Below, one piece after another: positions 905 through 49,499 of a stretch of 64,000 nt of DNA. Source of the stretch: Microthyrium microscopicum. Taxonomy: Eukaryota. The notes under the pieces were generated by a model. It was not told the DNA's origin. It saw nothing but the letters and a program-made list of their open reading frames with translations, and ran no database searches. The position numbers were made by a program, and so were the translations under genes. Each line of letters starts with the position of its first letter. The first letter of the stretch is position 1. Where the stretch lies: positions 34,627 through 98,626 of the forward strand of contig MU004230.1 in assembly GCA_010405405.1 (NCBI GenBank). The letters are read 5' to 3'.

Positions 905-909
905 CTTAA

Positions 910-9687: not shown

Positions 9688-9692
9688 CTTAA

Positions 9693-12222: not shown

Positions 12223-13705
12223 CTAGCAAGTTGGCTTGGTTGGCGGAGTAGCAAAATAGACCTTGTTGTAAACATTGTTTCCAGTATGCAAAGTCGATGA
12301 TGGTGGCACACTTCCAGGGCCACCAGTCTGACTGGCATTTGGGAACAATGCAAAGCCAGAATCCGGTGAAAGAACACTGTTCGGGCAGCCAAGGGCTGTA
12401 CCAGGTCCAATAATTGGAGCCAGCGTTGTGAGAGCCCAAGTAATGGCTTTGGCGCCATCTTCTTCCGTTCCAGCAATGGCCAAAGGAGTGATCGAATTGA
12501 GGCCCATGTAGATGTCGCAAAGGATCGTTTGCGGGCTTAGATTGGGTGTTCCGAGTTGTGGAAACGCAGGTACAATGATGTTGCGAGGATATACGGTTGT
12601 AAAAGCGTCAACCAAAGCATCAACAGCACCATATGGTGTAGCACGACGGTACCAGTTTTCAGGCCACTTTTCTGGAACATAGGTGAAGTCTCCAGTTGTT
12701 GAGTCGTATTGAGCGCCAATGATGGAAGATATGCTTTCGTAGTTTGCCACACCGCCAGCGAGATAGGTTCCGTTGGAGAAGAAGTTTGGGTAAAAGGCAA
12801 ACGCTCCGAGACTGACAATCAAAGGGAATGGGAAAAAGTAGAGATATGGATTGTAGAGCTTGGAGAAGTCGGCTTGAGCGGCATATTGGGAGGTCATTAC
12901 GTCCAGTGTGAACTGCTTGCTGGAATCGGCGGCAGCGAAACCAACGTTCTGTTTGAACAATCTCGATGAAAGGTGGTGGTTATCACCACAGCCGTTGTAG
13001 AAGTCTGATCATTGTTAGTAAAGTTCTATGGTAAAACAAAATAATGGCCATTGAAGGTCCCAGCACTCCACACTACTGCTAGAGTTTCGCAAGAGGGTGG
13101 AAAGGCTAGAGCGGCTAGTGTATGAAGCGGTGAAGAGGATTCCTACCTTCTCGATTTGGAGAAACATCTGTCTCAACGGTAGAATGACGATTGAGACCAC
13201 CAACCCCTCCTACCGAAGAAAGGGAAAAGCTCTCAGTGGCAATATCACCATCAGTTAGCACAGCGAATGTTGCAAGAACCGCGGCAAGATCTGCTCCCAT
13301 ATTGAAACCACGAGCAGTCGCATCCAGGACTTGCCCGAAATTGACGTGCCCATCTCTGGGCAAGTATCCATAGTTGGCGAGAAGGTTGAGACCTGGGCAT
13401 GGTCCACGAGCGTCATTTGGACCTGGTGCGATGAATTCATATCCAGGCTCAGGGCGTTTATTGTCCGGATCAACCGAGCTTGCAATGGATCCAAGGAGAC
13501 CAGCTACGGTATTCGTCAAGGCTCCAATGGTGCCAGTCAGACCGCTCACCACGCCACCAAGTAATTGACGCTTTTCCGCCGAGGATTCTGCCTGGCGTTC
13601 TCGAAGATATGTTTCCATTTCTGCCCTTGAGGAAACTCCGGCCATGCCAGGAAAGGCGACAGAGAGGGCTGGCAAGGCCAAGACGAACGTATCTTGTAGT
13701 CTCAT
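12223..13705 (-). CDS. Secreted heme-thiolate peroxidase (unspecific peroxygenase/chloroperoxidase family, long type)
   Basis: Signal peptide; RGPCPGLNLLANYGYLPR proximal-Cys motif; HSTVETDVSPNRED acid-base region; C-terminal PENWYRR. One intron at ~13005-13145. Confidence 0.88.
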
Positions 13706-14698
13706 GATGAATACGAACTAAGAAATGAATGAATGAATGTTGTAGATGGCAAATTGCCCAAGGCGAAATGATCTGGATTTTCGACCGAATCGTGTTTCCT
13801 CTTACCTTTATATCTGCATCTCGGTATTTCTCGGTCGTCTTTCCGCACTTTTTGGCTTGAGTATAAACTAGGAAAAATGCCGGTGATCGACATGGCTTTG
13901 ACCATTTGAAGGATGATCTGGCTGATATGCTTCACCCGACTTGTGGATGATACAAAGTGGAGGTGGGCACTTGCCGTGCCTACACAGTTCATATTTCGAT
14001 CATCGCGACGGTCGATGGTCTACGGTAGTAGTCGAGCGCCCTGGAGTGCCCTTGTTAGTATCTACAGGTACGGAGCTATGGAAAAGGTACCGGTAGGATG
14101 GAACATGAAAATAAGTTCGAAAGGACCAAAATATCTGGAAAACAGGGTTACACAACGGTCCTTGCACCTCGAGACGAGACCTCTTCTCATGCGGTATTCT
14201 TTTTGCTATTGGATTCTCCAAGACAGCAATGACCGGATATCGAGTGTATCTCGTCAACGCGATGATCGTACAGCTTGCTCTTCGCTATCTTCTTGATGCC
14301 AAACCAGTATTGACCCATCATACAGTCGCAAGTGCCTCCTAGTATCTCTTCTATGCCAGTCATACTGGTTGGTACTCCGTAGTCTTCGGTATGGAGAAGT
14401 TGAGTCACGAGTGCGGGCGACCTGACGGACATCGGGAATTATTTGTACAAATACCAAAGCCACACCGTTGCAATCCATGCAGTGGCGTGTAGATCAGCAT
14501 CGAAATATAACTCACTTGTCATCCAATGAGGTATTTAATGATGGAGTTGTTCAGAATGCCATGTCCAGAACAGTGGGAATTGAATCGACGATTCAAGATG
14601 GTGGGGATCACCTGGGCATTGATACGCAGATACGGCCGTTCAGGTTCCGAAAAGGGGAGATTGTGGAGACACTAGCAGAGCCTCAGGAGTCAGTAGCC

Positions 14699-26711: not shown

Positions 26712-28384
26712 TTAAGCGCGAGGATCGAAAAAGCGCTTGACCACTGATCCGATATCATTAGAGTCGTCAGGGTATACAAAGAAGGCAATTGCAATAATGG
26801 CATATCTAGAAGATGGAGTTAGTCACACGTCAAAAGCGCAAAGATTGTTCAAACTTACGTTCCAATGCACATGGCACCTTCCAGGTAATTGCTCTTGCCA
26901 TCTTGAATGAGATAGTTGACGACCAAGATGCTGATGAAGAAAACAACAGTCTCAAATCCGTGGAAGTTGAGAGTCATGTCTTGACCAATGATCCAGCCGA
27001 GGATGACAAGGAAAGGAGTAACGAAAATGGCGATTTGAAGACTGCTGCCAATAGCGACACCAATAGCCAGATCCATCTTACCCTTGTATGCGACAACAGC
27101 AGCAGTGACGTGTTCAGCAGCATTTCCGACAATTGGAAGTAAGATTAGACCAATAAAGGTTCGTGACATGCCAGTGCTGGAAACGACATCATCGATGCTG
27201 TCTACCAAGTAATCGGCGCAGAAAGAGACAAGGATGGTGATGAGTAGAAGCGTTACGACGGCAGGAATAGGTTTGAGAGTTCTTTCTTCCTCATTTTCAA
27301 CCTCCTGCTCGCCATCGAATATATCCTTGTGAGTCTTGAGTTGAAAGAGAAGATAAAGGCCGTAGAGAATTAGGAGGATGATTGAGGTTCCTCGGGAGAT
27401 CACCAGAATGGCATCAATGCTACTGACTGAAGATTTGGTGATTGACGCAGCTAGAGCGGCTGGTATGACTAGAGAGGCGCTGGATACAGCGAGTAAGGAA
27501 CCAAGTGTAGTTGCAGCAGTTGCATTAAAATCCTGTTGACCACCTCGGAACCCCGCAGAGACGAAACAGCAGCCTAGAACCTAAGTTTATGTTAATATAT
27601 GAGATGCGAATGGCTTGGAGGAACGTACCAGAAGGACGTTGGATAGGATAGATCCGAGCATGCTGGCCTGAACAATGCGAATCTCGCCTCGCAACAGTGC
27701 AAAGATACTAACCTAAGAGCTGTTAGTGTAACCCTTCTAAGTTACTACGTAGAGTAGCACTTACAATCAACTCGACAGCATTTCCGAAAGAGGCATTCAG
27801 CAATCCACCAATGGTTTGACCAACAGAAGCTGAAAGTTCCTCCGTGGCAAAACTGAGCAGCGCTGCCAGAGGAATAATTGCGATAAAGTTGACAGCAAAG
27901 ACCACAGTAGGGTCAAGCTTCAAGATACCACAGATGATTCCTGCTGGCACAAAGACCAATAAGACATTGACATAGTTGCTAGCCAGTACTTTCCAGGTCA
28001 AGTGTAGTGCGGTTTTGGGATATGAAGCCCAAGGGCGAGGGTCATCGTCGCCCCATAGTGTTGCTTGGCTCTCGCCAGGGTCTGCGCGTGCGCTTCCACC
28101 GTTGAGGAGAGGGGTAGACTCGGATTGTGCTTCCACGTCGGCGCGGCGTTGAAAACTATTCTTGCGATGCTCCATGTGCATGCGACCTTTGAGGTTTGCT
28201 GGTAGAGAAGAAGTATGATTAGCTTGGATGTTCACAATCTCATTGAACCACAGATTGTGAAGCTTGGAAGAGGTTGAATAGGTATGAAGGAGGGGATAAG
28301 AAGGTGCGTAAAGCAATTGAGTAAACAGCACGATGATGGTAGGCTAGGTGATTGAAGTTTAGGTGGATCAAGGTACATACCCAT
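26712..28384 (-). CDS. VCX1: Vacuolar Ca2+/H+ exchanger (CAX/VCX1 family)
   Basis: [52 protein letters not shown]. Probable micro-exon ATG G at 28384-28381; several introns; stop at 26712-26714. Confidence 0.88.
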
Positions 28385-29262
28385 CTTTAGATCCGGCGCA
28401 ACGTTGATGAGATATATAAGACGCTTTTGAGTTGAACAGAGAGTTTGGTGGGCGGTACAAGAAACACAAGGTCTGACCCGAGAGCGAGCTACCTGAGAGG
28501 CAGAATTGGGCGGCAAACAAAGAGCTTCTTGTTGAATTACAAAGAAGTTGTAATCCAAAGCTCGGCGCCGCGATATCACTCTGGCACGAGAGGACGGAGA
28601 GGTACGGAAAGGCTTGGCTTGCTTGGGGAAAGGAGGCGCAGCAGAGCCAAGAGGTGGGAAGTATTTGATTAAATCAACTTGTCAGATTGCTTGAGGAAAG
28701 TTTAAGCATAAACAAGGTCTAGAAGCATAGGCGAGGATTGGTTGTTAAAGAAGAGACGGAGGATGTTGTTATTGTATCTTGGTCCCTTGGAGGTGAAGTC
28801 CCACCCAAAAATCATGGCAGGGAAGCGTCATTGGCGTCGTCAAACAACCAGGTTGGACACGCTTTTTGCAAGCCACGTCCTTGTTTCAAACGAGAAAGGA
28901 CGAAGCTGATTTGAGGAAAGAATAGCCAAGAGAAATGCTAAGGAGGATCGGGAACAACTACCCCATTTTTCCAGATGCGTTTTGTGGCGCAGCGCATATC
29001 CCACTCTAGGGTACCGACCGTACCGTACTGCCCTTGTGTTTGCGAGAGACTATCTTCATTCATACTTTTTGTCGTGGAGTATCTGAAATTTAATCAGCAG
29101 TCTTGCCGCGCCCGTTCAAACAACAGAGAACTGTTGGGGCGATACGAAGTACGGTACCTAGGTAGGTACTCTACGGATGTTGCTGCGGTCATGAAGCACG
29201 ACGACTCGACAAGAAATGACTCGGAAGATTTATACGATTACTACATCTTATTTTGCATTGCC

Positions 29263-31131
29263 TTATCTAGACTTGTCTCTCGAAAACTTCTTGCTTATCT
29301 CATTTTTCAAAGATGACTTCCATGAGAGAATCTTCTTGATCCCCAGACTACCCATGTCACCCGAGTACTCAAACAGGAGGCTGACATATACCATGGTCAC
29401 TCTAGCTCCTTTGGTGGAGTGAATATCCGCCAAATTCTGCATATCTACCGACAAATAAGACTGACGAATTCCATTCTTATTGAAAGTCCGATCTTGCAAT
29501 TCCGCTGAGAATTCACAGTGCTTTGGAGATTCGTTAAAGACCTCCCATACTTGCTTTGCACTTCTTGGTGTTGCGCTTTTACTGATTGGTGTGCATATTA
29601 GATGACTCCATGTCTTTTTTTCTTTCGAATCGTAGCCTACTACGATGTAGATTGCCTCCGAGAAGTTTTTGCTTTCGGTGCTTGGCTGCAGTTTGCAGTG
29701 AAGGACCGAATGCCAGTTGTACTTTTCAAGCTTCCACCATGGAACATCCGGAATATCTGCATTGTGTTGTCGACTGATGGATATTTTATTGTCTTGAGAC
29801 TTGTGTCCGACCTGTAGTTCTGGATAACAAGAAACTTCTTTGAAGAATCGCTCGTCAAGTCCAAGAAACTGGAAAGTTACCGTCGAGCCGTTCAAAGAAG
29901 CATGCTTCATTGGCCTCTTTCGTACGTAGACCGTCTGAGTGGTTCTACTCGCCTTGAGTCGTGAGAAATCTACCTCCCCGATCTTTGCACACACTCGAGC
30001 GCATTGCTCACTATTTGGGTATGTTCTTTGCAACATCACCCCAGCTACCGTGTCAGTTTCCGAGGACTCATTTCGACAATCCAGTATGGCCCAGAATGCC
30101 CACGTGTTTGGGCCATTCAAACAGGTAATCATTTGAGTGGTTAGGCGAATGCCTTTGTTGGTCATCGTCGGTGGTGAACTGACATCTAGCCTACTAAATC
30201 CGACAAAGTCTCTCGAGTTTCTAAAGTCTTGTGGAGACCTGGCAAGAAGTCCATGCATCTCGCTAGTTTTCATGTCCGAGCCACTGTCCCAGGCAAGAAG
30301 AGATTGATCGTCAGATGTCTTGAGTAGCTCTTCTTGCAGTCGGGTAAATGCGTTCTCGCCTCCCTCTCCATACAGAAGAGGAATGTGTACGTTGAAAAGG
30401 CCCATAAGACAGTATGCCATATCTTCTGGCCGAGTTGTGGTCCGATTCGATGCCCAGTACATCTTTTGAGCAATGCTGAAGTCATATATGGCCTCAAGAT
30501 CACCATCCAAGGCGGACTCTATGATACCTGTGACTTCTGATATCTCTGTTTTTCGTTCTTTCCGTGATTTGAACCGCTTCCAGTCACTTGTGTAAAACAC
30601 CAGCTCCGGAGGCGCAATGAGTTCCTGGAGGGTCCAGCCCCGAGTGAACCATCTACTCAGTCTGAAGCTGCCGTCACTTACAGTGATTGCAGTATCGGGA
30701 ACATCGCTCAGATATGCATAGCATACGGTGGCCTGAGAGTACCAGCGAAACATGGAATTGATGGCCTCCGAAAGTTCGGAACTGCTTGACTTGTCGATAC
30801 TACAGGTATCCACCCAGCAATAGCTGAGTCCATCTTTTAAAGCTTGTTCGCAGCAATATTGGACTTTTTGGAAGCCGAGTTTGTCTTTTCCACGGTCATT
30901 TCGAATGTCGTCGTATAAGAACTCATCCTCTCCCCCTGTGATATGTTAGTATGAGACGAACGTTTTCCTTATCATTTCATGTAGTGAAATATGTGTCAAC
31001 AAGACGACTGTCTGTAGGATATCAAAAAGCGAGTTGTGGTACTTACAAGTATGCGAGAGTATAGCATATTTTGGAGCGTTGTCCTCGTAAAACCACTCGA
31101 GTTGAATCGATTTGCTATTTATTAACCACAT
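29263..31131 (-). CDS. HET-domain (heterokaryon incompatibility, PF06985-like) protein with a long unrecognised C-terminal region
   Basis: YAILSHT|WGEDE, WVDTCSIDKSSSSELSEAINSMFRWY, SRWFTRGWTLQELIAP, EDMAYCLMGLF, PLLYGEG..AF.RLQEE; intron 30936-31046. Confidence 0.93.
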
Positions 31132-31477
31132 GAAATGATTTGAAGGTCTCTGACCGATGTCAAGGGTCTGATTGCATGAGGAGTCAGTATTTGCTGCCTA
31201 GCTAATAGCCGCTGTCTCCAAACGATTGAAAGGAGGCGCGGTCGTTCTTCAAAACGCCACACTTGTTGTTGTACATGCAGGACTTTGGAAACAGTCTTCA
31301 ACAAACTGAAGTACGTATTAGGGATATGTTGGAGTAACTCGATGCTGGACTCATTGTTTTGAGTCCAGATGATGTACATTCTAGGATTGGAGAAAATCCT
31401 CCCGAAATGTCCGAGGGTTTGACTTGCACTGCCACCACGAATCCTGTCATGATCCATGAGGCGCAACCAATTGACAA

Positions 31478-31620
31478 AAACTTCTACTCCTCAACCGCCA
31501 GATTCGCTACGAAGCTTGGAACATCTTCTGCCGTAAGGTCCGAGAGGGATTTGGTAGTACTTGCAGCAAGGCTTATACTTCGGTGTTCCTGCCATGAATG
31601 AGATTCTTGAGGTACTCTCC
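31478..31620 (+). pseudogene. Decayed sixth copy of the tandem paralog family
   Basis: 31478-31540 reads KLLLLNRQIRYEAWNIFCRKV, matching KDLLLLNRQICNEAW / KSLLLLNKAIHCEAWNLCCRK of the intact copies. MNEILEVL follows in another frame. No start or F-box part is present. Confidence 0.75.
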
Positions 31621-32043
31621 TTGTCGATAATCAAGTAGGTACTCAAGGATGCGTACCTGGTAGCTTCGGACTTGAGGTTGATGAACGCAAAATGTGAAAA
31701 CATAAATTTGACATTACCAGTCAATTGTCTCTCTGCTGCATTCAACGATAATTATTTCGAATCAATACACTGACTGGTAAGAGGGGATCCGCAAGTACTT
31801 CCAAGTTCAACATCAGAATGCTATGCAGGTCATTCTTGTGAGTCATCGTCCGACATGACAACATCAATAAATACCAACATCTCCCCCATTGCCTCCGAAT
31901 GTCCAAATAAATCTTGTCTTCAATAACGAATTCCATGGGACTATATCAGCTTCACAGGCTCTTTTTTTTACGTCCAGTCAATAAACACCTGCCTCAGACC
32001 AATCATGGATCAGACCAGCCAGTCCTCAATATCCAAATCAATC

Positions 32044-32661
32044 ATGGCGCCGACTATCGGATTCTTCAGGCTACCTCTGGAGCTTCGACTAGAAATCTAC
32101 AACACCTACCTCAATGATGCTGGTGTCACACAATCAGACTTTGAGTCGTCGTCTATCGAAAGAGACATCAGCCAGTTGTTTACCGAAATCAATCAACTTC
32201 TACGTCTCAATCACCAAATCTACCACGAAGCTCGAACCATAGCCTGCCGACTGATTTATGACAGCACTCTCAAGTGTACAACCAACGACTTTGCAACATT
32301 TAAGCGCTCTTTCCAGTCCCTGCCTACTGATCGTCAACACTGCGTACTCACGAAGCTTACCTTGCTGAACACCCCCAAGAAACCTAATCGCTTTCCTACC
32401 AATAAGATTCTCAGAATTCTGGCCAAAGAAGCGGGCTATCGAAATACCCAGATGATGCAGAATGGCTCGCAGCTGGTATACAAGGATGGCGTAAAGAAAC
32501 CCGTGTTTCTGCAACATATATTTCCACCAGGTCGCCAGAGCCCAATCAATTTATACTTCAAACTTCATGCATCTAACGCTGGATGCTGGGAGTACCTTGC
32601 CTTGGATGGACTGGTTGCGCATCTTGAAAGCTTTGAAGAGATCCTCAAGGTAGAGCATTGA
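32044..32661 (+). CDS. Tandem paralog 1, F-box/2EXR-like N-terminus, function unknown
   Basis: FFRLPLELRLEIYNTYL; NDFATFKRSF; LTLLNT; WEYL; possible upstream ATG at 32005. Confidence 0.8.
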   Translation: MAPTIGFFRLPLELRLEIYNTYLNDAGVTQSDFESSSIERDISQLFTEINQLLRLNHQIYHEARTIACRLIYDSTLKCTTNDFATFKRSFQSLPTDRQHCVLTKLTLLNTPKKPNRFPTNKILRILAKEAGYRNTQMMQNGSQLVYKDGVKKPVFLQHIFPPGRQSPINLYFKLHASNAGCWEYLALDGLVAHLESFEEILKVEH

Positions 32662-33053
32662 TTTTGAAAATTCGGAATGCAAGCTCCCAATATTATACTT
32701 TCAATTGTTTCTTTTCGTCCCTTCATGAAAGCTTCCTGGCCTTAGCATGTCGCTTTCCTTGAGAAGTAGTTCCTCTCTCACTGCCCACTGGACTTCTCAA
32801 CTAGTGCTATTGAAGTTTCTCATACATTGAGCTATTTTGAGTCATCACTGAACATCATCGCTGAAGATTCTTATCGCCAACATAAACTCATTGTTTACTT
32901 GCTCTCACATTGTCACTATCGTCCTATAAACCCTCAATCATTCCACCTTCGACTCACTTTCTCCAACTTCCTATGCTATCGACGACCACATCTCACTCGG
33001 ACCGAGCCAACAATCAGCGCAGGTGAAGACCTCCTTCAGCAGATCCTACAGCA

Positions 33054-33698
33054 ATGGCATCCTCTATCGGGTTCTTCGACCTACCAGCGGAACTTCGACT
33101 GGAAATCTACAAAGTCTATCTGGATGACTGCGGCTCTTACACTCCGGAAAACGATGAGGAGAAAGATGGCAAAGATTGCAAGCATATTCGCAAAGTGATC
33201 CCAGACTTCTTTGATGAAGCCAAAGACCTTCTACTTCTCAATCGTCAAATTTGCAACGAGGCATGGCACATCATCTCACGAATAGTCCATAACCAAGAAG
33301 CTCCAATCCTCTTCCATTGGGATACCGACGATTTTCACACATTCAAGCGCGCATTCGAGTCTGTTTCCGTCGAACAGCGCTCCTCTTTTGTCGAAGGCAA
33401 GCTTATGCTGGTCAACACTCCACTAACACCAGACCGCTTCCCAATCAAGGAATTGGTCAGCATTCTGGGGGAAGAAACCAGCGATCGCAGCATCTGCTTC
33501 ATCGAGGCATATGGACGCGAGAGGTGGGTGAGGGAATGGATGGTCGATGGCTTCCACTTCGAGGTAGATGAAGAGGACAAACGCCTTTTGTCTTTCAGCG
33601 TTCATTTTACCAGAGGTGAAGGTTGGGAGTACTTTGAATTTGAGGGAATGCCCAACTGGCTCGACTGTATCGACCAGATTCTTCGGATGGAGCATTGA
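33054..33698 (+). CDS. Tandem paralog 2
   Basis: FFDLPAELRLEIYKVYL; DDFHTFKRAF; LMLVNT; WEYF. Confidence 0.82.
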   Translation: MASSIGFFDLPAELRLEIYKVYLDDCGSYTPENDEEKDGKDCKHIRKVIPDFFDEAKDLLLLNRQICNEAWHIISRIVHNQEAPILFHWDTDDFHTFKRAFESVSVEQRSSFVEGKLMLVNTPLTPDRFPIKELVSILGEETSDRSICFIEAYGRERWVREWMVDGFHFEVDEEDKRLLSFSVHFTRGEGWEYFEFEGMPNWLDCIDQILRMEH

Positions 33699-34388
33699 CG
33701 GGTGCTCACTCACTTCCGGATTCTCCCTTGGAGGATGGATGAGTCGACAAATCAATGATATATACCTAGGTACTCATTGAGTCTAATATCGGCCATCTGC
33801 TACGTTCTATCATCAGGTGCCTAATGTCCCGGAAGGTGCGCCAAGTATTTAGCTCTACTTCAACGCGCTGGAAAACAAAGCGTGTCTTTGTCAAGAAGTG
33901 CCATAGGAGAGCTCTCTATAGCTGGGAGCAGGCTTTTTGTTTTGCTGACCTGGCGGATGGTCTCTCTCTGCGTATTTATCCATAAGCTGTGTATGCACAG
34001 TCGTCACCCAACTCAGCAAGAGGTGACAATGTCAACTTCGACCTACTTCATAGAGGGAAAGTAAAACCATGCTGAAGTTCAGCAGTAGCGACAACACATG
34101 TGTGAGTATTCGCTGCCTAGAGGCAAAACTCACAGGCTGCAGCCAAGGCTGATATTTTGATTTTAGGCCGCCTCCTAGAGTTCTCTCCATCAAGATCCAC
34201 TTTGGCACTTCTCACGAAGTATTACCCGCCCAAGAACGAACGCACGAGCGATAGCTTCAATCTGCCATGAATAGATCACTCTTACTTCAGCACTACTATA
34301 AACCATACCTCAGATATCTCAAACATTTTATCAAGCGCTTCAGTCTCCTCTCAGGCCGTGTGCCCAAACCAAAGCCAACACTTCGATT

Positions 34389-35000
34389 ATGGCCTCCCAT
34401 TTTCCCTTTATGAAGCTGCCCACGGAACTTCGATTAATCATATATGAATATTGCCTTTATGGCTGTGGTCACGACTTCACTCTGGGCCTTGAAAATTACT
34501 TCGATATGATCGCCTTCTTCGACGCGCGCAAATCGCTACTGCTCCTCAACAAAGCAATACACTGCGAGGCATGGAATTTATGCTGTCGCAAAACCACTCC
34601 CGAGATTCTTGAGAAAATTCACTTCTTCTGTGAGGCCGATGACTTCGATGCCTTCAAACGCGCGTTCCACAGCCTACCAAACGATGAACGACAATATGTG
34701 GATGTTGGACTGACCTGGTCAAACACCATCGAGAATGGCAAACCCTATCCCATTAAGGAAATCCTCAGAATGGAGATTCTTTCACAAAATGACGGTTATG
34801 ACAGCTTTGAAGAGATGCAACAAGACACAGATCTCAAGCCGGATCGCGAATTAGATACCATGTTGTTCTCTACGATGGTGCTTAATGCCACATACGAAGT
34901 GGAGTTAAAGTTCAGGCTTGAAGAGGACTGGGAGTATCTCTACTTGATGGGACCACTCGGCGCAATCATGAGTGGCTTGGACGAAATTCTTGAATTATAG
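34389..35000 (+). CDS. Tandem paralog 3
   Basis: FMKLPTELRLIIYEY; DDFDAFKRAF; LTWSNT; WEYL. Confidence 0.82.
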   Translation: MASHFPFMKLPTELRLIIYEYCLYGCGHDFTLGLENYFDMIAFFDARKSLLLLNKAIHCEAWNLCCRKTTPEILEKIHFFCEADDFDAFKRAFHSLPNDERQYVDVGLTWSNTIENGKPYPIKEILRMEILSQNDGYDSFEEMQQDTDLKPDRELDTMLFSTMVLNATYEVELKFRLEEDWEYLYLMGPLGAIMSGLDEILEL

Positions 35001-35226
35001 CACTGGATGGCTCCTGCCTTTTCTTCCTCCATGACTTCCCATCACAATCACCTAAGCAACGAGCACAACACCAATAACAACAAAATTCATCCCACTTTCT
35101 AAATCTTGAGCTCATCACACATCAGTCCATTCAACTACCAGTTCTTTGGATCTCTCTATTTTGCCACATCCAATACACTCATCGGCTCACAAGCTGATCC
35201 CCTGGCCCAAACGACTCACGTCAACT

Positions 35227-35910
35227 ATGTCCTCAATCTTTCGATTTATGGATCTCCCCCCGGAACTACGACTTATGATCTACGAAGAATACTTTCTTGC
35301 CTGCATAGGCAGCGACGTCAAGAATTTCTGGCCTGCTACTGACAACATTTTCGAGCTTGTTGGTCTTTTCGATTCTTTTAAAAAGCTCCTTCTTATTAGC
35401 AAAACGGTCAAGGAGGAAGCTTGGGAACTCTACCGGTCGCCAGTGAAAGATTTGAATACAGAAATCATACAATGGGATCGTTACTTTGACTGTGAGACCG
35501 ACGACTTCGGAACTTTCAAGCATGCCATGCAGAGCCTATGTGACGATGTACAATGCAGGTTGGTTTGTGTTGAGCTTACACTGTCGAACACTCCCATGAA
35601 ACCCAACGCCTACCCGATCAACAAATTGCTCGAAATCTTTGCTCAAGCACTGGGCTATGACAGTATTGAATCGATGGAAGCAAACGCAAAGCTAGTTCAG
35701 AAGGCGGAATTGCACAAAAGAGCTTTGTTTCGCCACAGGATCGACAATGACTGGGACTCAGGTGTCAAGCTGTCCTTTACGCGCTACCACACGCCTGCTG
35801 GATATTGGGAGTACTTCCACTTAAAGGGGGCCGAAATCGGTCAACTCCACCTCCATGGCACTTGGGTTCTGGACGAGATGCTTAAAGTGGAGCCCTCCAC
35901 GTCGATTTAG
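35227..35910 (+). CDS. Tandem paralog 4
   Basis: ATG 35227; FMDLPPELRLMIYEEY; DDFGTFKHAM; LTLSNT; WEYF. Confidence 0.82.
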   Translation: MSSIFRFMDLPPELRLMIYEEYFLACIGSDVKNFWPATDNIFELVGLFDSFKKLLLISKTVKEEAWELYRSPVKDLNTEIIQWDRYFDCETDDFGTFKHAMQSLCDDVQCRLVCVELTLSNTPMKPNAYPINKLLEIFAQALGYDSIESMEANAKLVQKAELHKRALFRHRIDNDWDSGVKLSFTRYHTPAGYWEYFHLKGAEIGQLHLHGTWVLDEMLKVEPSTSI

Positions 35911-36426
35911 TCGTGAACCAACATAGAAATGTTTATCTGAATGTCTTCTCCCACGAAGGCTCGAAAAGAGCAAGAAATGTCATGGAACTTATAAGGGACT
36001 TACTGCGCCAGACGATCTGATCAACCTCCAGGTCTGAGGTGCATTGTGGTTACAACTGGTTCTGACGATGAATTTGTCACTTTCGCGTTGGCAATCGGGT
36101 CTTCGGGCCAGGACTAAATTGACAGAGAAGAGGGCCCATTCCTTGAACAGTCAACACCACATGCTTTTGATACCCATCGTGCCTTCCTTAACAGCTGCTC
36201 CAGATGTATGTCCAGCAGCGTCATCAAAGATGTTCACAGGACTCCAGGCAACCACTTCTTCCACCATCATGTATGTAGCAGTACCTTGATCATTCTGTAC
36301 TCTACAAAAAATCCAACCTCTATTCTCGACTCCTTGCTTGTGCTTCTGCTTTTTCCGTATTAAAGATCCACTCACTTCCAGTAAAACTGTCCTGCCTACT
36401 CATCCCAAAGACGGGTCACCACAGAC

Positions 36427-37059
36427 ATGGAATTGAAAATGGACTTCTTCCAATTCCCTGGCGAGATTCGCAACAGAATCTACACCTTCTACATCAATGA
36501 CTGCGGTACCAGTCCGCATCAGGCAGAGGAGCAAAAGATATACACAAGAAGCAATTGTCATGATGTTGCCACCTTCTTCGATGATGCTAAGAAACTCTTC
36601 CTGCTCAACAAGCAAATCTACATCGAATCTCGAGGCATCTTCTGTCGATTGGTTCATGACGAGCGGACCGGCCTTTCATATGACATTCACGACTGGGCCA
36701 CCTTCAAGCGTGCCTACAAAGCCCTTCCTTCTCATCTATTTGGCGAGACCCAGGGAACGCTCACGCTGTTGAACACCGTCGAGACTGGCAACACTCAGCC
36801 GATCAAGCAGCTTATCGAATTTTTTGCCAAGGAAGGTGGTTGGAAATCTATTGCCGCCATGCAGAAGAGCTGCCCGACCACATACGACAAGGACCTGAAC
36901 AAAATGGTCCACGCCAGACAGTGGACGAGCAATGAAGACATGGACATGCAATTCTTCTTCAAGGTCTACAAACGCAAGGATGATATCTGGGAGTACTTTC
37001 ATATGGAAGGAATTGGATGGACCGACGAGATCGATGATCTGCTTCAGCTGGACTTCTGA
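36427..37059 (+). CDS. Tandem paralog 5
   Basis: FFQFPGEIRNRIYTFY; HDWATFKRAY; LTLLNT; WEYF. Confidence 0.82.
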   Translation: MELKMDFFQFPGEIRNRIYTFYINDCGTSPHQAEEQKIYTRSNCHDVATFFDDAKKLFLLNKQIYIESRGIFCRLVHDERTGLSYDIHDWATFKRAYKALPSHLFGETQGTLTLLNTVETGNTQPIKQLIEFFAKEGGWKSIAAMQKSCPTTYDKDLNKMVHARQWTSNEDMDMQFFFKVYKRKDDIWEYFHMEGIGWTDEIDDLLQLDF

Positions 37060-37361
37060 TCGATTGATCCTCACATCCTTAAGTAGTTTCTTGAGATCAA
37101 CCATCGAGGACGGTGGCTGAGATCGAGGGCGGCGACTCAAATGGGAACACTTCTTGAGCCGAGCACAGCAGCAAGTCTTGTGACAATTATACCAGCAGGT
37201 CTGCGAAGTGAATAGCATACTTTAGCGCCATAAAAGACGATGTATGTCATCAAAGTCGATGGCATGTTTTCACAATGGAGAAACATTTCCCCAAACACCA
37301 ATCTGATTCCAAAACGTGATATAGTCCAAGAGTTACGTAGATCTACACAGAATTTTCGGGT

Positions 37362-37585
37362 ACAAAATAAGTGAGCCGTTTCGACGACTATGCTCATCGA
37401 TGACGATGGCTGCCATAGCAATTCTTAAAGAGTAAACACCCAAGTACTTCAACTCCTGTCAGCGTCATAAACCTTATATCAACTTGTTAAATACAGTGGT
37501 TGTTAAATCAGTTACTCTTTAAGAAGTGCTATAGCAGCCATCGTCATCGATGAGCATAGTCGTCGAAACGGCTCACTTATTTTGT
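37362..37585. repeat. Long inverted repeat (74-bp arms, 76-bp spacer); MITE-like or hairpin RNA precursor
   Basis: 37362-37435 is the reverse complement of 37512-37585 with 2 mismatches. Confidence 0.9.
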
Positions 37586-37633
37586 GCCTGGAGAGACAGA
37601 GTACCTAGGTATATAAGCATCTTAATAATTGCC

Positions 37634-39018
37634 TCAAACGACCGTCCCGTTAGCCAAAAGCTTCGCCCCGGAGAACACACCATCCAACCACTCCCCCATA
37701 ACCGCCGCCAACTGATACTCCGCACCAACCTGGCAATGCTGCCCAGCACCCAGCGCATTCGTAAACTCATAATAATACGCCCTATCACCCAAATATCCCG
37801 CCACAATCTTCGCCTGCCCCGAAAAGCTCGAATCGTCCTCCCCGTCGCCCACAAACACCGGCACATCAATATTCTTGACACTCTCCGCTGTAACATTGAT
37901 AGCCTTTGTGCGTGTAACCCAGTCAAATGGACTAGTCGTATTGAATGCAAACATCCCCTGCTGAACACCCCATCTAAACGTCGATGGTGTACTGGTGTTG
38001 AAGCTAGCAGCATTTACAACGGCATCAAAAGCCGTTGCATTGCCGGATTTGAACAGGGCGGTCAGACTCGATGGGAATTGGGCAATGAGTGAATCGTAGA
38101 GACTGACGACACCATCGATGGCCATAACAGCCTTGAATCTCTTCTCCTTCGTCGCAGCAATGGGCGCAAGAACACCACCGTACGAAATTCCCACCAACGC
38201 CAATTTGGTTGTATCGACATCACTTCGTTTTTCCAGCCAATCCACCACGGGTGTTACGGCCGTCCACCAATCAGGTCTAAATCCAATGTTCTGGTATCGG
38301 CGGACGGTGGGCTGCCCCGGTCCTTCATATGTCATGAAGTTGTATCCGCGCTCCAGCAAACTCTTGCCGATTGCGTGGTATAATTCCTCTTGGGAGCCGT
38401 CATAGCCTGTTCCGGCGACGATGGTGGGCAGCTTGGAGGAGTTGGTGGCGGAGGCTGGGTAGAAGATTGCTGGGACGGTGTATGATCCATCACTGGATGT
38501 GAGATTCACGCGTGCTGCTGGGATGGGTAGAAGCTTGATGGCAGCGTCGAAGTTGCTTAATGCGGAGGCCCAAAGGGAGTATATCCGTGGGTCGGTGATG
38601 TTGCCGTGCAGGAAGAAGTCTGCGGCGCGATAGTATGTAGCTGCGCGGAAGTACGCTTGACGTGCTGATACGGGGAATTTGGTCGCGTTGGTGCTGGTAG
38701 CGATGGACTGAATTTTGGCAGCTAGGTAGTAGAAGGCAGAGTAGAAGGATTCGAAGTTTTGCGGAATGAGTTGGCTGGCTGCGCGGAGGATTTCGCCAGA
38801 GTTGGCGCCTTCGCCGTCGGCGTAACCTAGGAGGACTTGGAGCTGGAAGGACATTTCTGGGTCGCTGGTGATGGGGTATATCACTGGGGCGGAGGAGTTT
38901 GTTGTGTTTTGGGTGAGCTGGGAGTGTATTAGTACTGAAAGGGTTTGGGGAAGAGGATATTACGAACCGCTGGAGTGAGCAGAGCGCTTAAAGCCAAGAG
39001 CCATCTTAAGAGATACAT
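37634..39018 (-). CDS. Secreted alpha/beta hydrolase (2,6-dihydropseudooxynicotine hydrolase / S9-like)
   Basis: Signal peptide MYLLRWLLALSALL; short intron near the 5' end; GYDGSQEE, YEGPGQ, GISYGG nucleophile motif, HCQVGA. Confidence 0.87.
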
Positions 39019-42303: not shown

Positions 42304-43312
42304 ATGTTGATAACAGAGAGCCACATTGATGTCCCTACCCAGGCTGGAGGTGATATGAGTAAGTGAATTTTCCAGAATCCGAAATATATATATGATCTGT
42401 ACGCAGTATGGAATCTGTATCTCGATCTCGATCTGAGGCTTCCCAAAACTTGCGATAGATACCGCATCAAAGAACCATTTTCTCCTTATTTCACCCAAAC
42501 TCTAACACATCCCAGGAATATTCATCTTCCACCCAAAAATAGAAGGCTACCCATCCGCAAAATTCCCCGGCATAGTAGTCTTCTCCGAAATATACCAAGT
42601 AACCGGCCCAGTCGCCCGTTTCTGCCGCCAAATCGCTGCCCACGGCTACATATGTGCCGCCCCCTCCTCCTACCACGAATTCACCTCCTCCGACGCCCTA
42701 GCCTACGACGTCCCAGGCACAGACGCCGGCAATGCCTGGAAAATTGAAAAGACGCTCTCCGGCTACGATGAGGACGCTACACTCTCCGTCGATGCGCTAC
42801 TAGGCCTGCCAACATGTACGGGACGCATTGGCACGACGGGCATGTGTTTGGGTGGACATTTGGCGTATCGGTGCGCATTTGATAAGAGGGTTAGTGCGAG
42901 TGTGTGTTATTTTGCGACGGATGTGCATAGTGGAACGCTGGGGAAGGGGGGCGATGATAGTTTGGCCAGGACGAAGGAGATTAAGGGTGAGGTTGTTATG
43001 ATTTTTGGAAAGAAGGATACGCACATTCCGCCGGCTGGGAGGGATTTGATAAGAAAGACGTTGCAAGATGCTGGGGTGACCTTTAGTTTTTATGAGAATT
43101 CGTTTGCGCAGCGTAAGTGGTTGATACGAAAGAAGAGATAAGTTGGCTAACCCGTTATAGATGCGTTTATCAGGGACGAATTGAGCAAAGGAAGATATGA
43201 TCCAGCTGTGGCAGGAATCTGTTTTCAGATGCTGTTGGAACTTTTTGGTCGAGTACTTCGATCAGATCTTGGACCGGCGGAAGGCGTGGCAGAACCGGAG
43301 CACGTTTGTTGA
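42304..43312 (+). CDS. Dienelactone hydrolase family protein
   Basis: MLITESHIDV..., FSEIYQVTGPV, GMCLGG catalytic Cys motif, HAFIRDE.SKGRYD; two introns. Confidence 0.9.
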
Positions 43313-43532: not shown

Positions 43533-46256
43533 TTACTCGATTTTGCGGTAAAACAAGATGTAGGCCACCTTGCTATCCTTTGTCCAGTCTGGCTTGGGAG
43601 TGAGTTTGCCAGTGCTGGGGGTTGTGGCACCGTTTGCTACGGCTGCCAATTTTCGCCCAGAAGGTGTAGCCTCCTTTGAGCTTGAACCATTCACTTGGTT
43701 CCATCCACTTCCTTCTTCATCATCTTGATTCTCCTCGGTGTTACCAAATGACTCAAACATGTTCTGCCCTTGGAGAGATGATTGGCTTCGCTTGTGCTCT
43801 TCCAATGCCTTGGCGAGAACTTTAGGATCTTCATCAGCACCAGCAGACGCGACATCCTCTGCTCTGAGGCGACGAATGACGGTGTCATCTAGACGAACCC
43901 ATTCGATACCATCCTGTCTTCGGATATCGACTGTGTAATGACCTCCGCTGGCGTTTTTGCCATGGTGATAGACGACTGCACTGAGGCGGTATTTCGGCAT
44001 TCCACTCAGAGAGATTGCATTGCGTCTGGAAGTAGAGAACACCTCCTTTGGCATGGTAAGCTCCAATGGATAGCCAACCTTTTTCCATATTTTCTGAACA
44101 CCACCAGTGTTGTCATACTGGAATCGTTTGAGATGAAGGATAAGGACAGGAGGGAGAGAATCAATGAAGATCTGCTTAGTTGCGTTTGTGCCTGGGCCAC
44201 GAGGAGATGCAAAGTCACCATGTAGAGTCTCTGGTCGCGTCAAGTTCTTGAGGGCATCTACAATATTCTGCACTGTTGATGCTCCAATATCAAGCTGTAG
44301 CGCTTGGTAAGGTTCCATGGTGACAGAGTTCTTGAGACCTGGGACACGAAGTTCTGAGCGAATTTTACCACCAAAGATTTTGGTGATGGGCGAGTCGGTG
44401 TTGAGAAATCCGGAAGAGCGAGTAACAGCAGATCGTTGCTTGGGTCCAACTTCGAGCCAGCCAGCTTCAGTAGACTGCGATCGTTCGCTAATAGGAGATG
44501 TTGGGGTGTCTGCATCAGAAGAAGGAAGATGTCTCAAGACTGAAGCGCATTCATCATGAAGTCCTTCTAAAAGAAAGCCCATGAACTCTTCCGCGTCCTG
44601 CTGGTGTCCGCGCTACCAATTGTCAGATTCTGGATGTCCTATTTTCACTATATAACTTACTCTCATCGTCGAGAACCGTGGGAGACGCTTAATTGCGTCA
44701 TACACATATTCTGGGATGAATGCGTCCCCATATTGTTCCAGCTCAGTATCCTTGAGCCTCATTCGGAGCTTTTCTACCGACTCTGCGGAGTCAATGACTT
44801 TGTACTCTCTCATGAAAAGAATCCTATTCGCGTTAGAATCCGTCGAAAAGAAGCTTGGATGGAAACTTACATTGCGTCCAAGAGCGGCGTCTCACTTTTA
44901 AAACTGTGAGCAGCCTTTTTGCCGACTTGCTCAAGAAAATCATAAAATGGTATACAAGAAACCAGAACTTGCAAAATCTGTTCCCAGTCAGTACTTTTTC
45001 TTACTACGTGGAGGAGACTGTCAGCTTACAGAATTCATATAGCACATATTACCAGTATTAACAAGACCTCGTGGTTCGAGGAAGGATAATTTTTCAGCAG
45101 AGCGCACGTTGTATGCTCTGATTGCCTCAGCCAAGGAGGTGGATTTGGACTGAGCAGGGGTAGAATCAACATCAGCTCCATTAGAATTTGGCTGAGGTGC
45201 AACATTTGCTGGCCCTTTGGTTCGAACAAGATCTGCCCAAGACTTAGGGGCAGCTGGCTTTGCGGGCTCGGCCGCAGGTTGCTCTCCAGACACTTGTGGA
45301 CTTGCTTCTTCGTTGGATGCAACTTCAACTTCCAGTGTCTTTAGTGGCTCATCTTCCACCCGCGAAACCTGTGCCTTGTGGGTGTGAGCAGGAGAGATTT
45401 TGGGAATTGCGGGAATAGCAGGCCGAACATGCGCTTTCGGTGTAGTCTTTGGAGTGCTTGTAGCAGTGGTAGGCGTATCTGGAATCCTCTGATCCGACAC
45501 AGCTGACAGATCGCTGCGCATGCTATCTATGCTAGATGGTGTAGCTTCATGATCAGGATAAGCAAACTCCTTGTCAGCGATAGGCTGTTGTTGTGTTTTC
45601 TGTTTATTTCCACTTATATCAGCGCTATGTTGCTCGACAGCATCCGAAGCTGACCATTCCGGTAATGTAAGATTGCCAGGAGATTGCTGCCGGGCACGTC
45701 TGCGCCGACGTCGGGCGCGAGCAGGATAATCGTGTTCGTCGACTGAATACCAAGGTAGTTTAGGGTAAAAAGGTTCTCGCTGTGACATCTGTGGCGATTG
45801 CGGTGGTGGACTGGCAGTGGGAGCGATTGTGGAAAGAGGAGTCTCTACTGGAGCAATATCTGGAGTCGATGGGGCAGGCGTGCCTTGGGACGGATTGGTT
45901 ATGGGCGTAACAACGGCTTGTTGGATCACGGGCGCAGGTATAGGAGCGGGAGCTTGATATGTCTGGCGTTGAGAAGGATTGTACAGTGGTTGATGCTGTG
46001 GGTGTGACGATACTATCATTGGGCCATTCTGATGTTGTGGATGTGTAGGATATTGAGGGTAGTGTCGATACGCCTGCTGTGGCTGATAGTGTTGTTGCGG
46101 ATACCATTGTTGCTGGTACTGCCCTGGATGCATTTGATACTGTTGAGGATGAGGTTGATAGTAGCCTTGCTGATAGTAATCCTGTTGTTGCTGGTTTTGT
46201 CGTCGTCCCTGAGGCATCATCCCTGGGGGAACGCCATACTGATTATTCGGTAACAT
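43533..46256 (-). CDS. UBP3: Ubiquitin-specific protease, Ubp3/USP10-like
   Basis: Q/Y/P-rich N-terminus; PKSWADL; Cys box GLVNTGNMCYMNSV; QQDAEEF; His box YHHGKNASGGHY; AYILFY; three introns. Confidence 0.88.
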
Positions 46257-47414
46257 GATGTCGAGGAAGGCGACTGTGGAGTAAACCAACAGTCGCTCAA
46301 ACGTGACCTAGCGGGTGCAAACAAGGCGCACGCTGGTCAGGAGGGAGCTCTGCTAGGACGCGATGTACTAGCAAGTCGAGTCGGGTATGGTCGAGTAAGA
46401 GCGCACTCGACAGGTCAAAGGAGGGATTGAAAGCTAGGGAGGTGTAGAGGAAGATAGTGAGCAGCCCATGGCGAGCAGTCTTTATGAGGACTGTTGCGGG
46501 TTCAAGGTGAAAGGGCGAAGAGGTTAAGCGGAATTTTGACAGGCAAAAAGGCGCGTGAGTGGTAGGATGGTAGTGACAAGCGACCGGTGAGCAAGCAAAG
46601 CAAATGCTAGAGGTAGAAGAAGAAGGCGCTAGATGCAGATAATGCAAAGAAGCAGGAACCCAGATGAATTAGAAGAGGAGGTAAGGAAGAGAGAATGATT
46701 TGGGTGGCTCGTTCAAGACGAGAGAGTCAAGTTTAAGAGATGTGAGAGGAGAGATTGAATGGCGATGGGATGGCCGTTGGAAACTGCACGCTAGAGTAAA
46801 GTAGCTGCAGTCCATGTTCCGCCGCTCTTGGCAGACTCCAGAGCACATTCCCGTAAGCGGAGCGGAGCTATCTTTTGTAAATGGTCAAGCTAACCCAATG
46901 CGGCAAGTGTAATCTCAATCCATCGCTCTTGCCTCAGGCCCGATGACACTTGCCCCAGATTGCCTCATGCTCCTGCCATTCCTTCTTGATGTGGTTGGCT
47001 CTTACCTCTTCTATCTCTCTTCTCCAGACCCAATTCCCTCCTCCACGTCTCCAGTATTGCCTCTACAGTAGCTAGCTGGCGACACTGGAGTCTATATTTA
47101 TGGGGGCAATACTTTGCTTTCCTCTCATATCATAAATCACCCAGTCCTCCGTATAACTCCGTTTCATTCGCTGTCGCTGACCAGTCATCCTCACTACGCA
47201 ATTACAATCCGCAACTGCTGTGAAGGCAGTCTGTCATACGCTTTGTCCGGTTGCCAGCATCAATAGCATTTTCATTCTCTTTCATGGCAATTCTCTTCTA
47301 GCATACGCCATAGCCTTTCGCCTTCTTTGTTCCACCATTGAATTTCCTAGTCTCTACCATCCTTACCCCTCCACACGATATCGCCTCTATCCAAACCCAT
47401 CTTGAGCCTCTGTT

Positions 47415-49499
47415 ATGGCGTCTAATCCCACCATTCCGAGCATCGCTTCCAAGACATCCAACACCAACGCGCCAAAATTGGCCTCAGTTTCACCTTCCAT
47501 CCCTCCTCAGGCCTCTAATACTGGGAACGAAGCCGGTCAGCGTCGGGGCGGCGGCAGTGGGAGTTTCGGAGCAGGAGCATATTCACGGCCTTCAGTAGCT
47601 CCTCGTAACAGTTCTGGGAAAAAGACATCGTCAAAAGCCTCCAAACGAGTCCGTATGGACGAGTATACGAGGGCAGAAGCTGCTGTAATGCGCTCTTCAG
47701 CCAACCGCCGGGGGCAGACGTCCATCACCCATCTCATGGAATTTTCCCATGGACCACGTCCGTACTTGGGAAGCCATCGGAACTACCATCGCCATCAGAG
47801 ATCATCTGGTTCCTCTTGGCACGGTCACCACTCCGCCCTGGACAAGTCTCGTTATGTTCATGCAAACTATCGATTCATTGTAGATCCCAGACAATCCTAC
47901 GACCACCATAAATCAGACCCGGATGAGTACCTCGATTGGGATTCTATCCTTCAAATATTGGTTTCCTTGGAATCACAGTCGAATGCATGCCCAATATGCT
48001 TGGATACCCCAACTGCTCCGCGGATGGCCAAATGCGGACACGTGTTTTGTGCCCAGTGTCTACTTCGTTTCATGCACTCGGAGGAAGAGCAACCCAAGGC
48101 TTATGAGAAAAAGCCTCGCCATAAAAAATGCCCTCTCTGTTGGGAACCTATCTACATGTCAGATGTCAAGCCTGTGCGCTGGTATGCTGGAAATGAAGGC
48201 CCTGCACCACGAGAGGGGCACGATATCTTTCTCCGGCTTATGAAACGACCCTTTGGCAGTACTCTGGCTTTACCTAGAGATGGTGGTGCTGCTCTCAATA
48301 CCAAGGAAGATATTCCATGGTATTTTGCTGCCGAGGTCATTGATTACGCTCACATCATGAGAGGAACAGAAGATTACATGAAGCGGCAAATAGACAAGGA
48401 TATCGCAGCTGTGGAAGAACAAGAGCAACAAAACGAATTGCAGTATGGCGATGATACAAGCGAGTGGACCAAAAAGGCAGTTCGTTTGTTGAAGGAAGCC
48501 AAGGATAAGTTTGATGGTATCGGCGGTCCACGCGAAGACGAGATCCAACCTGCTGAACCAAGGCCGTCGCGGACATCCACTACTGAAGAACGAATTCCTG
48601 ACGACTGGCGGGACGAGTCGATGGACTCAACAGTTTCTCGAGCACTAGATTCTAGTGAATCAGGCGATGCGCGATCTCACCCTCCCTCAGAATACTATTT
48701 CTATCAAGGCCTTCTACATTATTACCTTTGCCCACTCGATATCAGGATACTCAAGGAGGCTTTTGGATCCTTTTCACTTTTCCCTTCCACGATTCTTCCA
48801 AGAGTGGAGCGTGTTTCTACTGGGCACGTCGTGGATGACGAACTTCGCAAGCGATCCAAATGGCTCAGTCATCTTCCCCGTGGCTGCGAAGTGTACTTTT
48901 TAGAATGCGACTGGACCGATACTGTTCCCAGTGAATTTCTCGCAAAATTCCAAGTAGAAATCGAGAAACGGAGAAAGCGCAACCATGATAAGGATGCTCA
49001 AGACGAACGGGCTCGTCTGCGAGCTGAGAAGGAGGAGGATGACAAAAGATATGCACACCTACGACGTAGATCACCTGGAGAACCTTCACAGCAATGGTTT
49101 CGAGATGACGAGTTTCAACCCTTGGTATCTCATGACAGAGAAGAAGATGGCACGGAAATGCCTTCTTCGTCGCCACCTTGGACTAATCGTCAAGGCGCTG
49201 GATTTACTTCCCTGGCACACATGTCAACCAGTCCATCAACTTCAAGAACTGTTTGGGGAACTGCGGTAATAGCTTCCACCTCTCCTTCGCTTGGTGCTAT
49301 AGCCGATGCTGCCAATCACTCCGCGGACGATGGATGGCTGCAAGACTGGGAGAAGGATCTGATGAAGGAAGACGAAGAGCTCATCGCGCAGGCAGAAGCC
49401 CTCTCATTATCTGAAGAACGAACACCAGCTGGAGGTGGAAAGAAAAAGAAGCCAAAGAAGATTACTCTGATGAGTACAAATGTTCGAAGAGGCGCATGA
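47415..49499 (+). CDS. MAG2: RING finger E3 ligase, RNF10/Mag2-like
   Basis: SITHLMEF, YVHANYRFIV, CPICLDTPTAPRMAKCGHVFCAQCL...CPLC RING, YYFYQ..HYYLCPLDIRIL; C-terminal KKKKPKKITLMST. Confidence 0.85.
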   Translation: MASNPTIPSIASKTSNTNAPKLASVSPSIPPQASNTGNEAGQRRGGGSGSFGAGAYSRPSVAPRNSSGKKTSSKASKRVRMDEYTRAEAAVMRSSANRRGQTSITHLMEFSHGPRPYLGSHRNYHRHQRSSGSSWHGHHSALDKSRYVHANYRFIVDPRQSYDHHKSDPDEYLDWDSILQILVSLESQSNACPICLDTPTAPRMAKCGHVFCAQCLLRFMHSEEEQPKAYEKKPRHKKCPLCWEPIYMSDVKPVRWYAGNEGPAPREGHDIFLRLMKRPFGSTLALPRDGGAALNTKEDIPWYFAAEVIDYAHIMRGTEDYMKRQIDKDIAAVEEQEQQNELQYGDDTSEWTKKAVRLLKEAKDKFDGIGGPREDEIQPAEPRPSRTSTTEERIPDDWRDESMDSTVSRALDSSESGDARSHPPSEYYFYQGLLHYYLCPLDIRILKEAFGSFSLFPSTILPRVERVSTGHVVDDELRKRSKWLSHLPRGCEVYFLECDWTDTVPSEFLAKFQVEIEKRRKRNHDKDAQDERARLRAEKEEDDKRYAHLRRRSPGEPSQQWFRDDEFQPLVSHDREEDGTEMPSSSPPWTNRQGAGFTSLAHMSTSPSTSRTVWGTAVIASTSPSLGAIADAANHSADDGWLQDWEKDLMKEDEELIAQAEALSLSEERTPAGGGKKKKPKKITLMSTNVRRGA

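Follow-up and report, generated by a model that had tools for sequence, protein, structure and literature searches.

A HET-domain gene head-to-head with a tandem array of 2EXR-related genes in Microthyrium microscopicum

Introduction

HET domains are abundant in the genomes of Sordariales, with a mean of 117 per genome. In three model species the HET genes known to act in incompatibility are few, 4 of 132, 3 of 94 and 4 of 65 (Clave et al. 2024, PMC10890737). Most of the ~100 HET genes in a genome have no known partner. We describe here a 64,000-nucleotide stretch of the Dothideomycete Microthyrium microscopicum (contig MU004230.1 of assembly GCA_010405405.1, positions 34,627 to 98,626; hereafter the window), in which a HET-domain gene stands head-to-head with an array of five diverged genes whose products have a 2EXR-type, putatively F-box-like, N-terminus. 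We read this locus as a HET gene clustered in the usual way with lineage-specific genes, and not as a demonstrated two-part system, and put the probability of that reading at roughly 0.6.

Arrangements that resemble this one have been described in plants and in fungi. S-locus F-box (SLF) proteins of plants have canonical F-boxes and FBA-type C-terminal domains, and are defined by haplotype polymorphism and by Skp1-cullin-F-box (SCF) activity on non-self S-RNase. Of the 69 HET genes of Neurospora crassa, 42 lie in a cluster with one or more lineage-specific genes (Wang et al. 2023, PMC10684091); the same paper adds that paralogs derived from duplicates are often clustered, that HET/lineage-specific clusters are syntenic only among close relatives, that some of them show coordinated expression, and that the meaning of the association is unknown. 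HET loci more generally show almost no synteny between genera, according to Zhao et al. 2015 (PMC4540973). At het-B of Podospora anserina, as Clave et al. 2024 (PMC10890737) describe it, Bh encodes a protein combining HET and a lectin fold and the adjacent Bp encodes a PII-like protein.

Results and Discussion

The HET gene. The original prediction of a HET-domain gene on the minus strand with its start at 31131 is confirmed by Pfam (PF06985), by a spliced RNA contig and by the start of its closest relative. Reading of the DNA and scripted splicing give a protein of 586 residues, the splice restoring the YAILSHTWG block (Table 1). Pfam HET matches exon 2 alone at E 5.6e-6 (27.2 bits) and the annotated protein P0059 at E 2.3e-11, with 44.7 bits against a gathering cutoff of 22.5, placing the gene within the family. 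In a 24-sequence HET alignment the blocks YAILSHTWG, WVDTxCIDK..SSELSEAINSMF.WY and RGWTLQE fall in invariant or near-invariant columns, and conservation is high across the first ~250 residues. There are at least 8000 homologues, and most among those listed carry the precomputed label PF06985+PF26640. A protein that matches the HET ORF with 100% identity is recorded as coming from Microthyrium microscopicum. Filamentous ascomycetes have a very large family of HET-domain genes, and this one is an ordinary member: a TIR-like cell-death domain at the N-terminus is followed by a conserved middle and a variable C-terminal region.

The start at 31131 is preferred because it matches that of the closest relative, P0060, a 587-residue protein that is 61% identical over its full length and begins MWLINCK. 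The deposited 675-residue model (P0059) starts further upstream, at 31457, and has one extra upstream exon and intron. The RNA contig is unbroken over 31046-31591 and lacks that extra intron, which is not proof against the longer model since contigs can drop minor isoforms. With the shorter model, the upstream 111-codon frame at 31457-31122 would be an upstream open reading frame (ORF), and the leader that holds it would be 460 nt long or more.

The array copies and the relic. Starting 912 bp from the HET start, in the opposite orientation, are five intronless plus-strand ORFs of 203-227 codons (c1 to c5 from left to right). In tblastn comparisons among the copies E ranges from 1e-14 to 1e-33, and their products are pairwise 28-39% identical at the amino-acid level. 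The annotated model of c3 (P0005) starts 36 codons earlier, at 34281. That each intact copy opens with the motif F.LP.ELRL.IY, as originally proposed, is true of the exact form only in two of the five (c1 and c2), whereas a relaxed form, [FM].[LF]P.E[LI]R[LN].IY, fits all five; c3 and c4 have M.LP.ELRL.IY and c5 is the most deviant, with F.FP.EIRN.IY.

The claim that five intact paralogs and a decayed one diverge from the HET gene also holds, the five by tblastn and the decayed copy by profile, where it proves real but tiny. It matches positions 53-75 of the array profile at E 4.8e-7 (27.2 bits, hmmsearch), and the next best of 2886 six-frame segments of the window scores 5 bits. In tblastn comparisons it is located at 31442-31546 with E 0.002-0.17, and the N-terminal motif is not detectable in it.

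Origin and maintenance of the array. The five copies group together in a maximum-likelihood tree built from 15 members of the family (ultrafast bootstrap (UFboot) 82, Shimodaira-Hasegawa-like approximate likelihood ratio test (SH-aLRT) 93; 84% of bootstrap trees), c3 and c4, which adjoin on the DNA, come out as sisters (94/95), and terminal branches are ~1 change per site long, all of which argues for an old, local tandem expansion of single origin. Two proteins from outside the window, P0006 and P0007, join the five copies in a starred clade (98/96).

The array is a real, constrained and expressed family. All five frames are open although synonymous divergence (dS) is saturated; nonsynonymous divergence (dN) is 0.54-0.78, and dN/dS is ~0.25-0.5 where dS could be computed. 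Positive selection cannot be addressed by dN/dS, since 6 of the 10 copy pairs have a dS that is saturated or undefined. No signature of repeat-induced point mutation (RIP) is present in the array, where TpA/ApT is 0.35-0.74 as against 1.72 in the AT-rich block at 1-10000 of the window. The opposite view, that the ORFs are decaying or spurious frames that make no working proteins, could point to the copy already reduced to a relic, to the lack of any Pfam family at cutoff and to how few relatives exist. Against it stand five frames of 203-227 codons kept open through saturated synonymous change, motifs retained across 15 sequences from several sources, a confident predicted fold and coverage of the region by an RNA contig, and we give it almost no credence.

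Relatives of the array. A profile built from the five copies and searched against 1.84 billion representatives at E<=1e-3 finds 58 proteins, of which 5 are the window's own and 2 score at ~1e-27. Eleven non-window proteins cover at least 140 of the 211 profile positions, the remainder mostly matching only the first 60-100. A word-indexed protein search returns only c2 itself when queried with c2 and 6 proteins when queried with the family alignment, and the five-copy alignment gives 224 pattern matches but no relatives among metagenome contigs. None of five full-length relatives (P0006, P0007, P0009, P0012 and P0020) has a Pfam family.

Membership of 2EXR (PF20150) is not reached by the copies themselves, since c1 to c4 score 16.1-19.8 bits against a gathering cutoff of 24.8 and c5 is unmatched. 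Their longer relatives fare differently: of the 30 longer profile matches scanned, 27 are above the Pfam cutoff for 2EXR, and several of them reach that of F-box-like_2 or DUF7730 as well. In the alignment of 15 sequences, from several sources, P11, E13 and R15 are near-invariant and E69 is invariant, corresponding to two ExR motifs, so that the array has both the two motifs and homology to proteins that pass. No canonical F-box profile matches any copy at E<=1; the only F-box-type match is F-box-like_2 on c3, at E 0.031 and below cutoff. Taken together, the profile matches indicate that the array N-terminus belongs to a fungal 2EXR/F-box-like_2 continuum. No published function of 2EXR was found, the only mention in the literature searched being a passage of the DPCfam paper (PMC9621593).

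Many of the 2EXR-type matches (P0008-P0058) are 450-510 residues long and match the N-terminal profile twice, ~220 residues apart. These could be true two-module proteins, or else models that merge two tandem genes of ~220 codons; if the latter, tandem pairs of such genes would be common elsewhere.

Predicted structure. An AlphaFold2 model of c2, made from a 15-sequence alignment, has a mean predicted local distance difference test score (pLDDT) of 81.2 and a predicted template modelling score (pTM) of 0.74. It consists of an N-terminal helical module (residues ~1-80) bearing the two ExR motifs and a compact alpha/beta domain (~85-214) interrupted at ~140-180 by a loop that is poorly conserved and modelled with low confidence. 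We take the other copies to share this two-part build. Comparison by VIA-align with 48,161 chains gives a sole match at Z>=5, the F-box region of FBXO42 (45-101; Z 5.2, root-mean-square deviation (rmsd) 2.4 A over 53 residues, 19% identity). Foldseek with the c2 model returns nothing at E<=1e-3, and a profile search of the PDB with the array lists no F-box chain. In the ESM Atlas the closest clusters consist of proteins from Ascomycota, 208-263 residues long, and some are labelled F-box, 2EXR or DUF7730. The F-box/2EXR-like naming of the N-terminus in the original prediction is well chosen, given the longer relatives that pass 2EXR (27 of 30) and a top structural match, though a weak one, that is an F-box. 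The N-terminus is of 2EXR type, and plausibly a diverged F-box.

Modelled alone, the C-terminal domain (c2 82-214) has a pLDDT of 78.2. Yeast YER067W (3bcy) gives the best result in both searches (VIA-align Z 4.4; Foldseek E 6.8e-3, TM 0.29) and was not accepted as a relative. In these models the C-terminal part is an alpha/beta domain without a convincing solved relative.

Transcription and the divergent arrangement. All transcription data come from contigs of the only run listed (X1, labelled 'RNA?'), which we treat as RNA because the contigs skip canonical introns on both strands; they are unstranded and give neither levels nor transcript ends. Contig 1 covers 29000-30934 and 31046-31591, and its joint at 30934->31046 skips 111 nt, CT..AC on the plus strand, which is exactly the HET intron. 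Contig 3, of 5500 nt, covers 31656-34101 and 34167-37217, includes all five array copies, and shows no introns inside the array ORFs. The joint between its two parts marks an intron (Table 1) that lies either in a spliced leader of c3 of ~290 nt or more or in a read-through transcript from c2. A third joint, at 31587->31656, has only 26 letters on one side and was not relied on. The HET/array block is thus transcribed, and a single mRNA is not implied.

These data bear on an explanation in which the two sides are co-regulated neighbours without physical contact, HET and c1 sharing a bidirectional control region and the entire block being turned on at once, for example in hyphal fusion, stress or development, while each gene serves its own targets. 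The genes are divergent, the RNA contigs of the two sides nearly meet (31591 and 31656), one contig spans all five copies, and coordinated expression is reported for some Neurospora clusters (PMC10684091). However, the contigs are those of a single run with the limits given above, and no shared promoter motif was found: the copies have no intergenic promoter repeats in common, and the repeats among them are coding-region matches only. We think co-regulation of this kind unlikely to be the explanation of the locus.

Is the array linked to the HET gene? The original prediction went further and had the array sense or neutralise the HET protein in the manner of S-locus F-box genes, and for this part no support was obtained: adjacency is all that links the two. 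At none of seven metagenome loci encoding HET relatives, retrieved with P0060 as query, do the flanks contain an array-type or 2EXR-type ORF, none of the 30 2EXR-type relatives scanned carries a HET domain, and no paper was found that ties F-box, 2EXR or DUF7730 genes to HET or to incompatibility. The linkage test covered paralogous metagenome loci only, and the named orthologues are P0060 for HET and P0006 and P0007 for the array. Co-folding of HET exon 2 (556 residues) with c1 (218 residues) gave an ipSAE of 0.00 in both runs, and having been done without controls or family alignments it bears neither way on binding.

A functional module of this kind would have one or more array proteins act as SCF substrate adaptors. 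Their target would be the HET protein next door, or variants of it that are foreign or allelic, and they would either keep it degraded, as antidote or guard, or release it on encountering non-self. The head-to-head placement 912 bp apart, the transcription of both sides in one RNA data set, the F-box-like N-terminus, the deep divergence of the five C-terminal domains with their variable loop, and the precedent of HET genes whose partner is encoded next to them (PMC10890737) all speak for it. It is opposed by the negative results just given (adjacency as the sole link, 0 of 7 loci and 0 of 30 fusions, no connecting paper), by the lack of any match of a canonical F-box profile to the copies, by the form of the known HET partners, which are single conserved genes with allelic polymorphism and not tandem arrays, and by the numbers of HET genes, which are very numerous with few that are incompatibility genes (PMC10890737). 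We judge it improbable. The most specific version, in which the five diverged F-box-like proteins would form an SCF adaptor panel jointly controlling the adjacent HET protein, degrading it in self and sparing it in non-self or altered-self, seems to us very improbable. If true, such a panel would be a fungal counterpart of the plant S-RNase/S-locus F-box system and the first known class of regulator for HET proteins that are not NOD-like receptors (NLRs).

The reading we prefer is that of a HET gene and lineage-specific genes in a cluster of the ordinary sort. On this view the array is an adaptor-like family related to 2EXR, small in number and made of small cytoplasmic proteins, that was locally duplicated and expanded in place; all copies would dock through the N-terminal module to one shared partner, for which Skp1 is the obvious candidate, and the diverged C-terminal domains may give each copy a different client. 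The array would stand beside the HET gene because fast-changing compartments of the genome collect both HET genes and young duplicates. In the clusters of PMC10684091, duplicated genes of restricted taxonomic range lie no more than a few genes away from a HET gene, and here five paralogs adjoin the HET gene and have only about a dozen full-length non-window representatives in 1.84 billion.

Several points weigh against this preference. The linkage test is weak, with only three of the seven metagenome loci having 10 kb on at least one side, and the HET genes at the seven are paralogs (40-46% identical) and not orthologues. The head-to-head layout, with 912 bp between the starts and contigs that end at 31591 and begin at 31656, fits co-regulation. 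Every copy is under the Pfam 2EXR cutoff, c5 having no match at all, and helical proteins with no relation to it come within 1 Z unit of FBXO42. The pairs het-c/pin-c and het-6/un-24 are examples of a HET gene with an adjacent partner. Several characterised non-NLR HET systems are built in this way, het-B among them (PMC10890737), and the statistics on clustering and on HET numbers come from Sordariomycetes and one Eurotiomycete, this fungus being a Dothideomycete.

Genomic surroundings. The window is ascomycete DNA of ~46% GC; no telomere repeat was seen in it, and there are no tandem DNA repeats within 28500-38000. Its first 10 kb (1-10000) have 21-22% GC, a TpA/ApT of 1.72 and a (CpA+TpG)/(ApC+GpT) of 0.10, which are strong RIP-type dinucleotide indices, and by appearance this block looks like RIP-degraded repeat DNA. 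It ends sharply at ~10 kb, beside a separate F-box-like gene and ~19 kb from the HET/array locus. That gene is unrelated to the array family and has no HET gene beside it; an in-frame stop at ~11069-11071 suggests an intron there.

A short way downstream of c5 is a miniature inverted-repeat transposable element (MITE)-like repeat, which adjoins a hydrolase gene at the 3' end of that gene (Table 1). Related pieces occur at 60438-60479, and 17 nt of its edge are matched perfectly at 33759-33775, in the longest spacer of the array. The RNA contigs break with loose ends at this repeat.

The HET gene and the array are flanked by a Na/Ca exchanger gene at 26855-28343 and, on the other side, by the hydrolase gene at 37634-38959. 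Genes for a ubiquitin C-terminal hydrolase (UCH) and a RING-finger protein, 6-12 kb to the right of the array, are probably there by coincidence. Enzyme genes are scattered around the locus, and no core secondary-metabolite synthase was seen among them.

Table 1. Positions of the HET gene, the array and other features, numbered from the first nucleotide of the window.
Feature	Position	Strand	Remarks
HET gene exon 1	31131..31047	-	MWLINSK...YAILSHT plus first base of W codon
HET gene intron	30936..31046	-	111 nt, GTAAGT...CAG; splice model and RNA joint
HET gene exon 2, stop codon included	29263..30935	-	residues 29-586: rest of HET domain, conserved middle region, C-terminal region
Relic of sixth array copy	31475..31594	+	~25-40 aa; only second ExR / helix-3 motif recognisable (QKLLLLNRQIRYEAWNIFCRKV...)
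Array copy c1	32044..32661	+	205 aa from the Met aligning with other copies; annotated start 32005 gives 218 aa; 2EXR E 0.0018, 19.8 bits
Array copy c2	33054..33698	+	214 aa; 2EXR E 0.025, 16.1 bits; copy chosen for structure model
Intron in untranslated RNA between c2 and c3	34102..34166	+	65 nt, GT..AG; joint 34101->34167 in 5500-nt contig
Array copy c3	34389..35000	+	203 aa; 2EXR E 0.0093, 17.5 bits; DUF7730 E 0.0088; F-box-like_2 E 0.031; all below cutoff
Array copy c4	35227..35910	+	227 aa; 2EXR E 0.0028, 19.2 bits
Array copy c5	36427..37059	+	210 aa; no Pfam family at E<=1, yet full-length match to family profile
Separate F-box-like gene	10295-11821 (approx.)	+	LIHRLPNELLYLCF...; Pfam F-box-like_2 E 0.0025, below cutoff; leucine-rich C-terminal part
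Peroxidase family 2 gene	12223-13717	-	
P450 gene	23385-24581	+	
MITE-like inverted repeat	37344-37603		arms 92 nt, 89% complementary, 76 nt apart
S9/S15-type alpha/beta hydrolase gene	37634-38959	-	
Dienelactone hydrolase gene	42506-43141	+	
Ubiquitin C-terminal hydrolase (UCH) gene	43533-44612	-	
RING-finger gene	47406-49499	+	
AMP-binding enzyme gene	52017-53780	-	

Comparison with described systems

The locus mainly adds a Dothideomycete example to a known habit, that of HET genes lying among young duplicated genes, and it brings out a small subfamily, related to 2EXR, whose alpha/beta C-terminal domain has no convincing solved relative. A HET gene beside a compact, transcribed array of putative ubiquitin-ligase adaptors also makes a cheap and clear test case for how HET domains are controlled. 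The view that no fungal locus with this layout had been described stands in part. HET genes clustering with duplicated lineage-specific genes (PMC10684091) and a HET gene with an adjacent partner (PMC10890737) are both in print, but we found no paper that joins the two gene families.

Like proteins of the Pfam families 2EXR (PF20150), DUF7730 (PF24864) and F-box-like_2 (PF13013), the array copies have an N-terminal LP.E[IL]R..IY followed by a second E.[RWS] motif. They differ in that all fall under the curated cutoffs, and in that full-length proteins of ~210 residues with the alpha/beta C-terminal domain of the array are limited to about a dozen representatives.

The array shares with the plant S-RNase/SLF system the linkage of several diverged F-box-type genes to a gene whose product can kill the cell, whereas the canonical F-box, the FBA domain, haplotype polymorphism and SCF activity are established for SLF. 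The resemblance to het-B (PMC10890737) lies in a HET gene that is not an NLR, with a specificity partner that in het-B is encoded by the adjacent gene; that partner is one PII-like protein, in contrast to the five F-box-like paralogs here, and what defines het-B is a pair of divergent haplotypes under balancing selection together with the outcome of cell-death assays, whereas the present locus is known from sequence and RNA contigs. The Neurospora clusters (PMC10684091) are Sordariomycete and largely subtelomeric, whereas this one is in a Dothideomycete with no telomere repeat in the window, and their lineage-specific genes are mostly without a domain, whereas the array has a recognisable 2EXR/F-box-like N-terminus. 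In both, a HET gene lies beside several young, duplicated, poorly annotated small genes, with the paralogs kept together.

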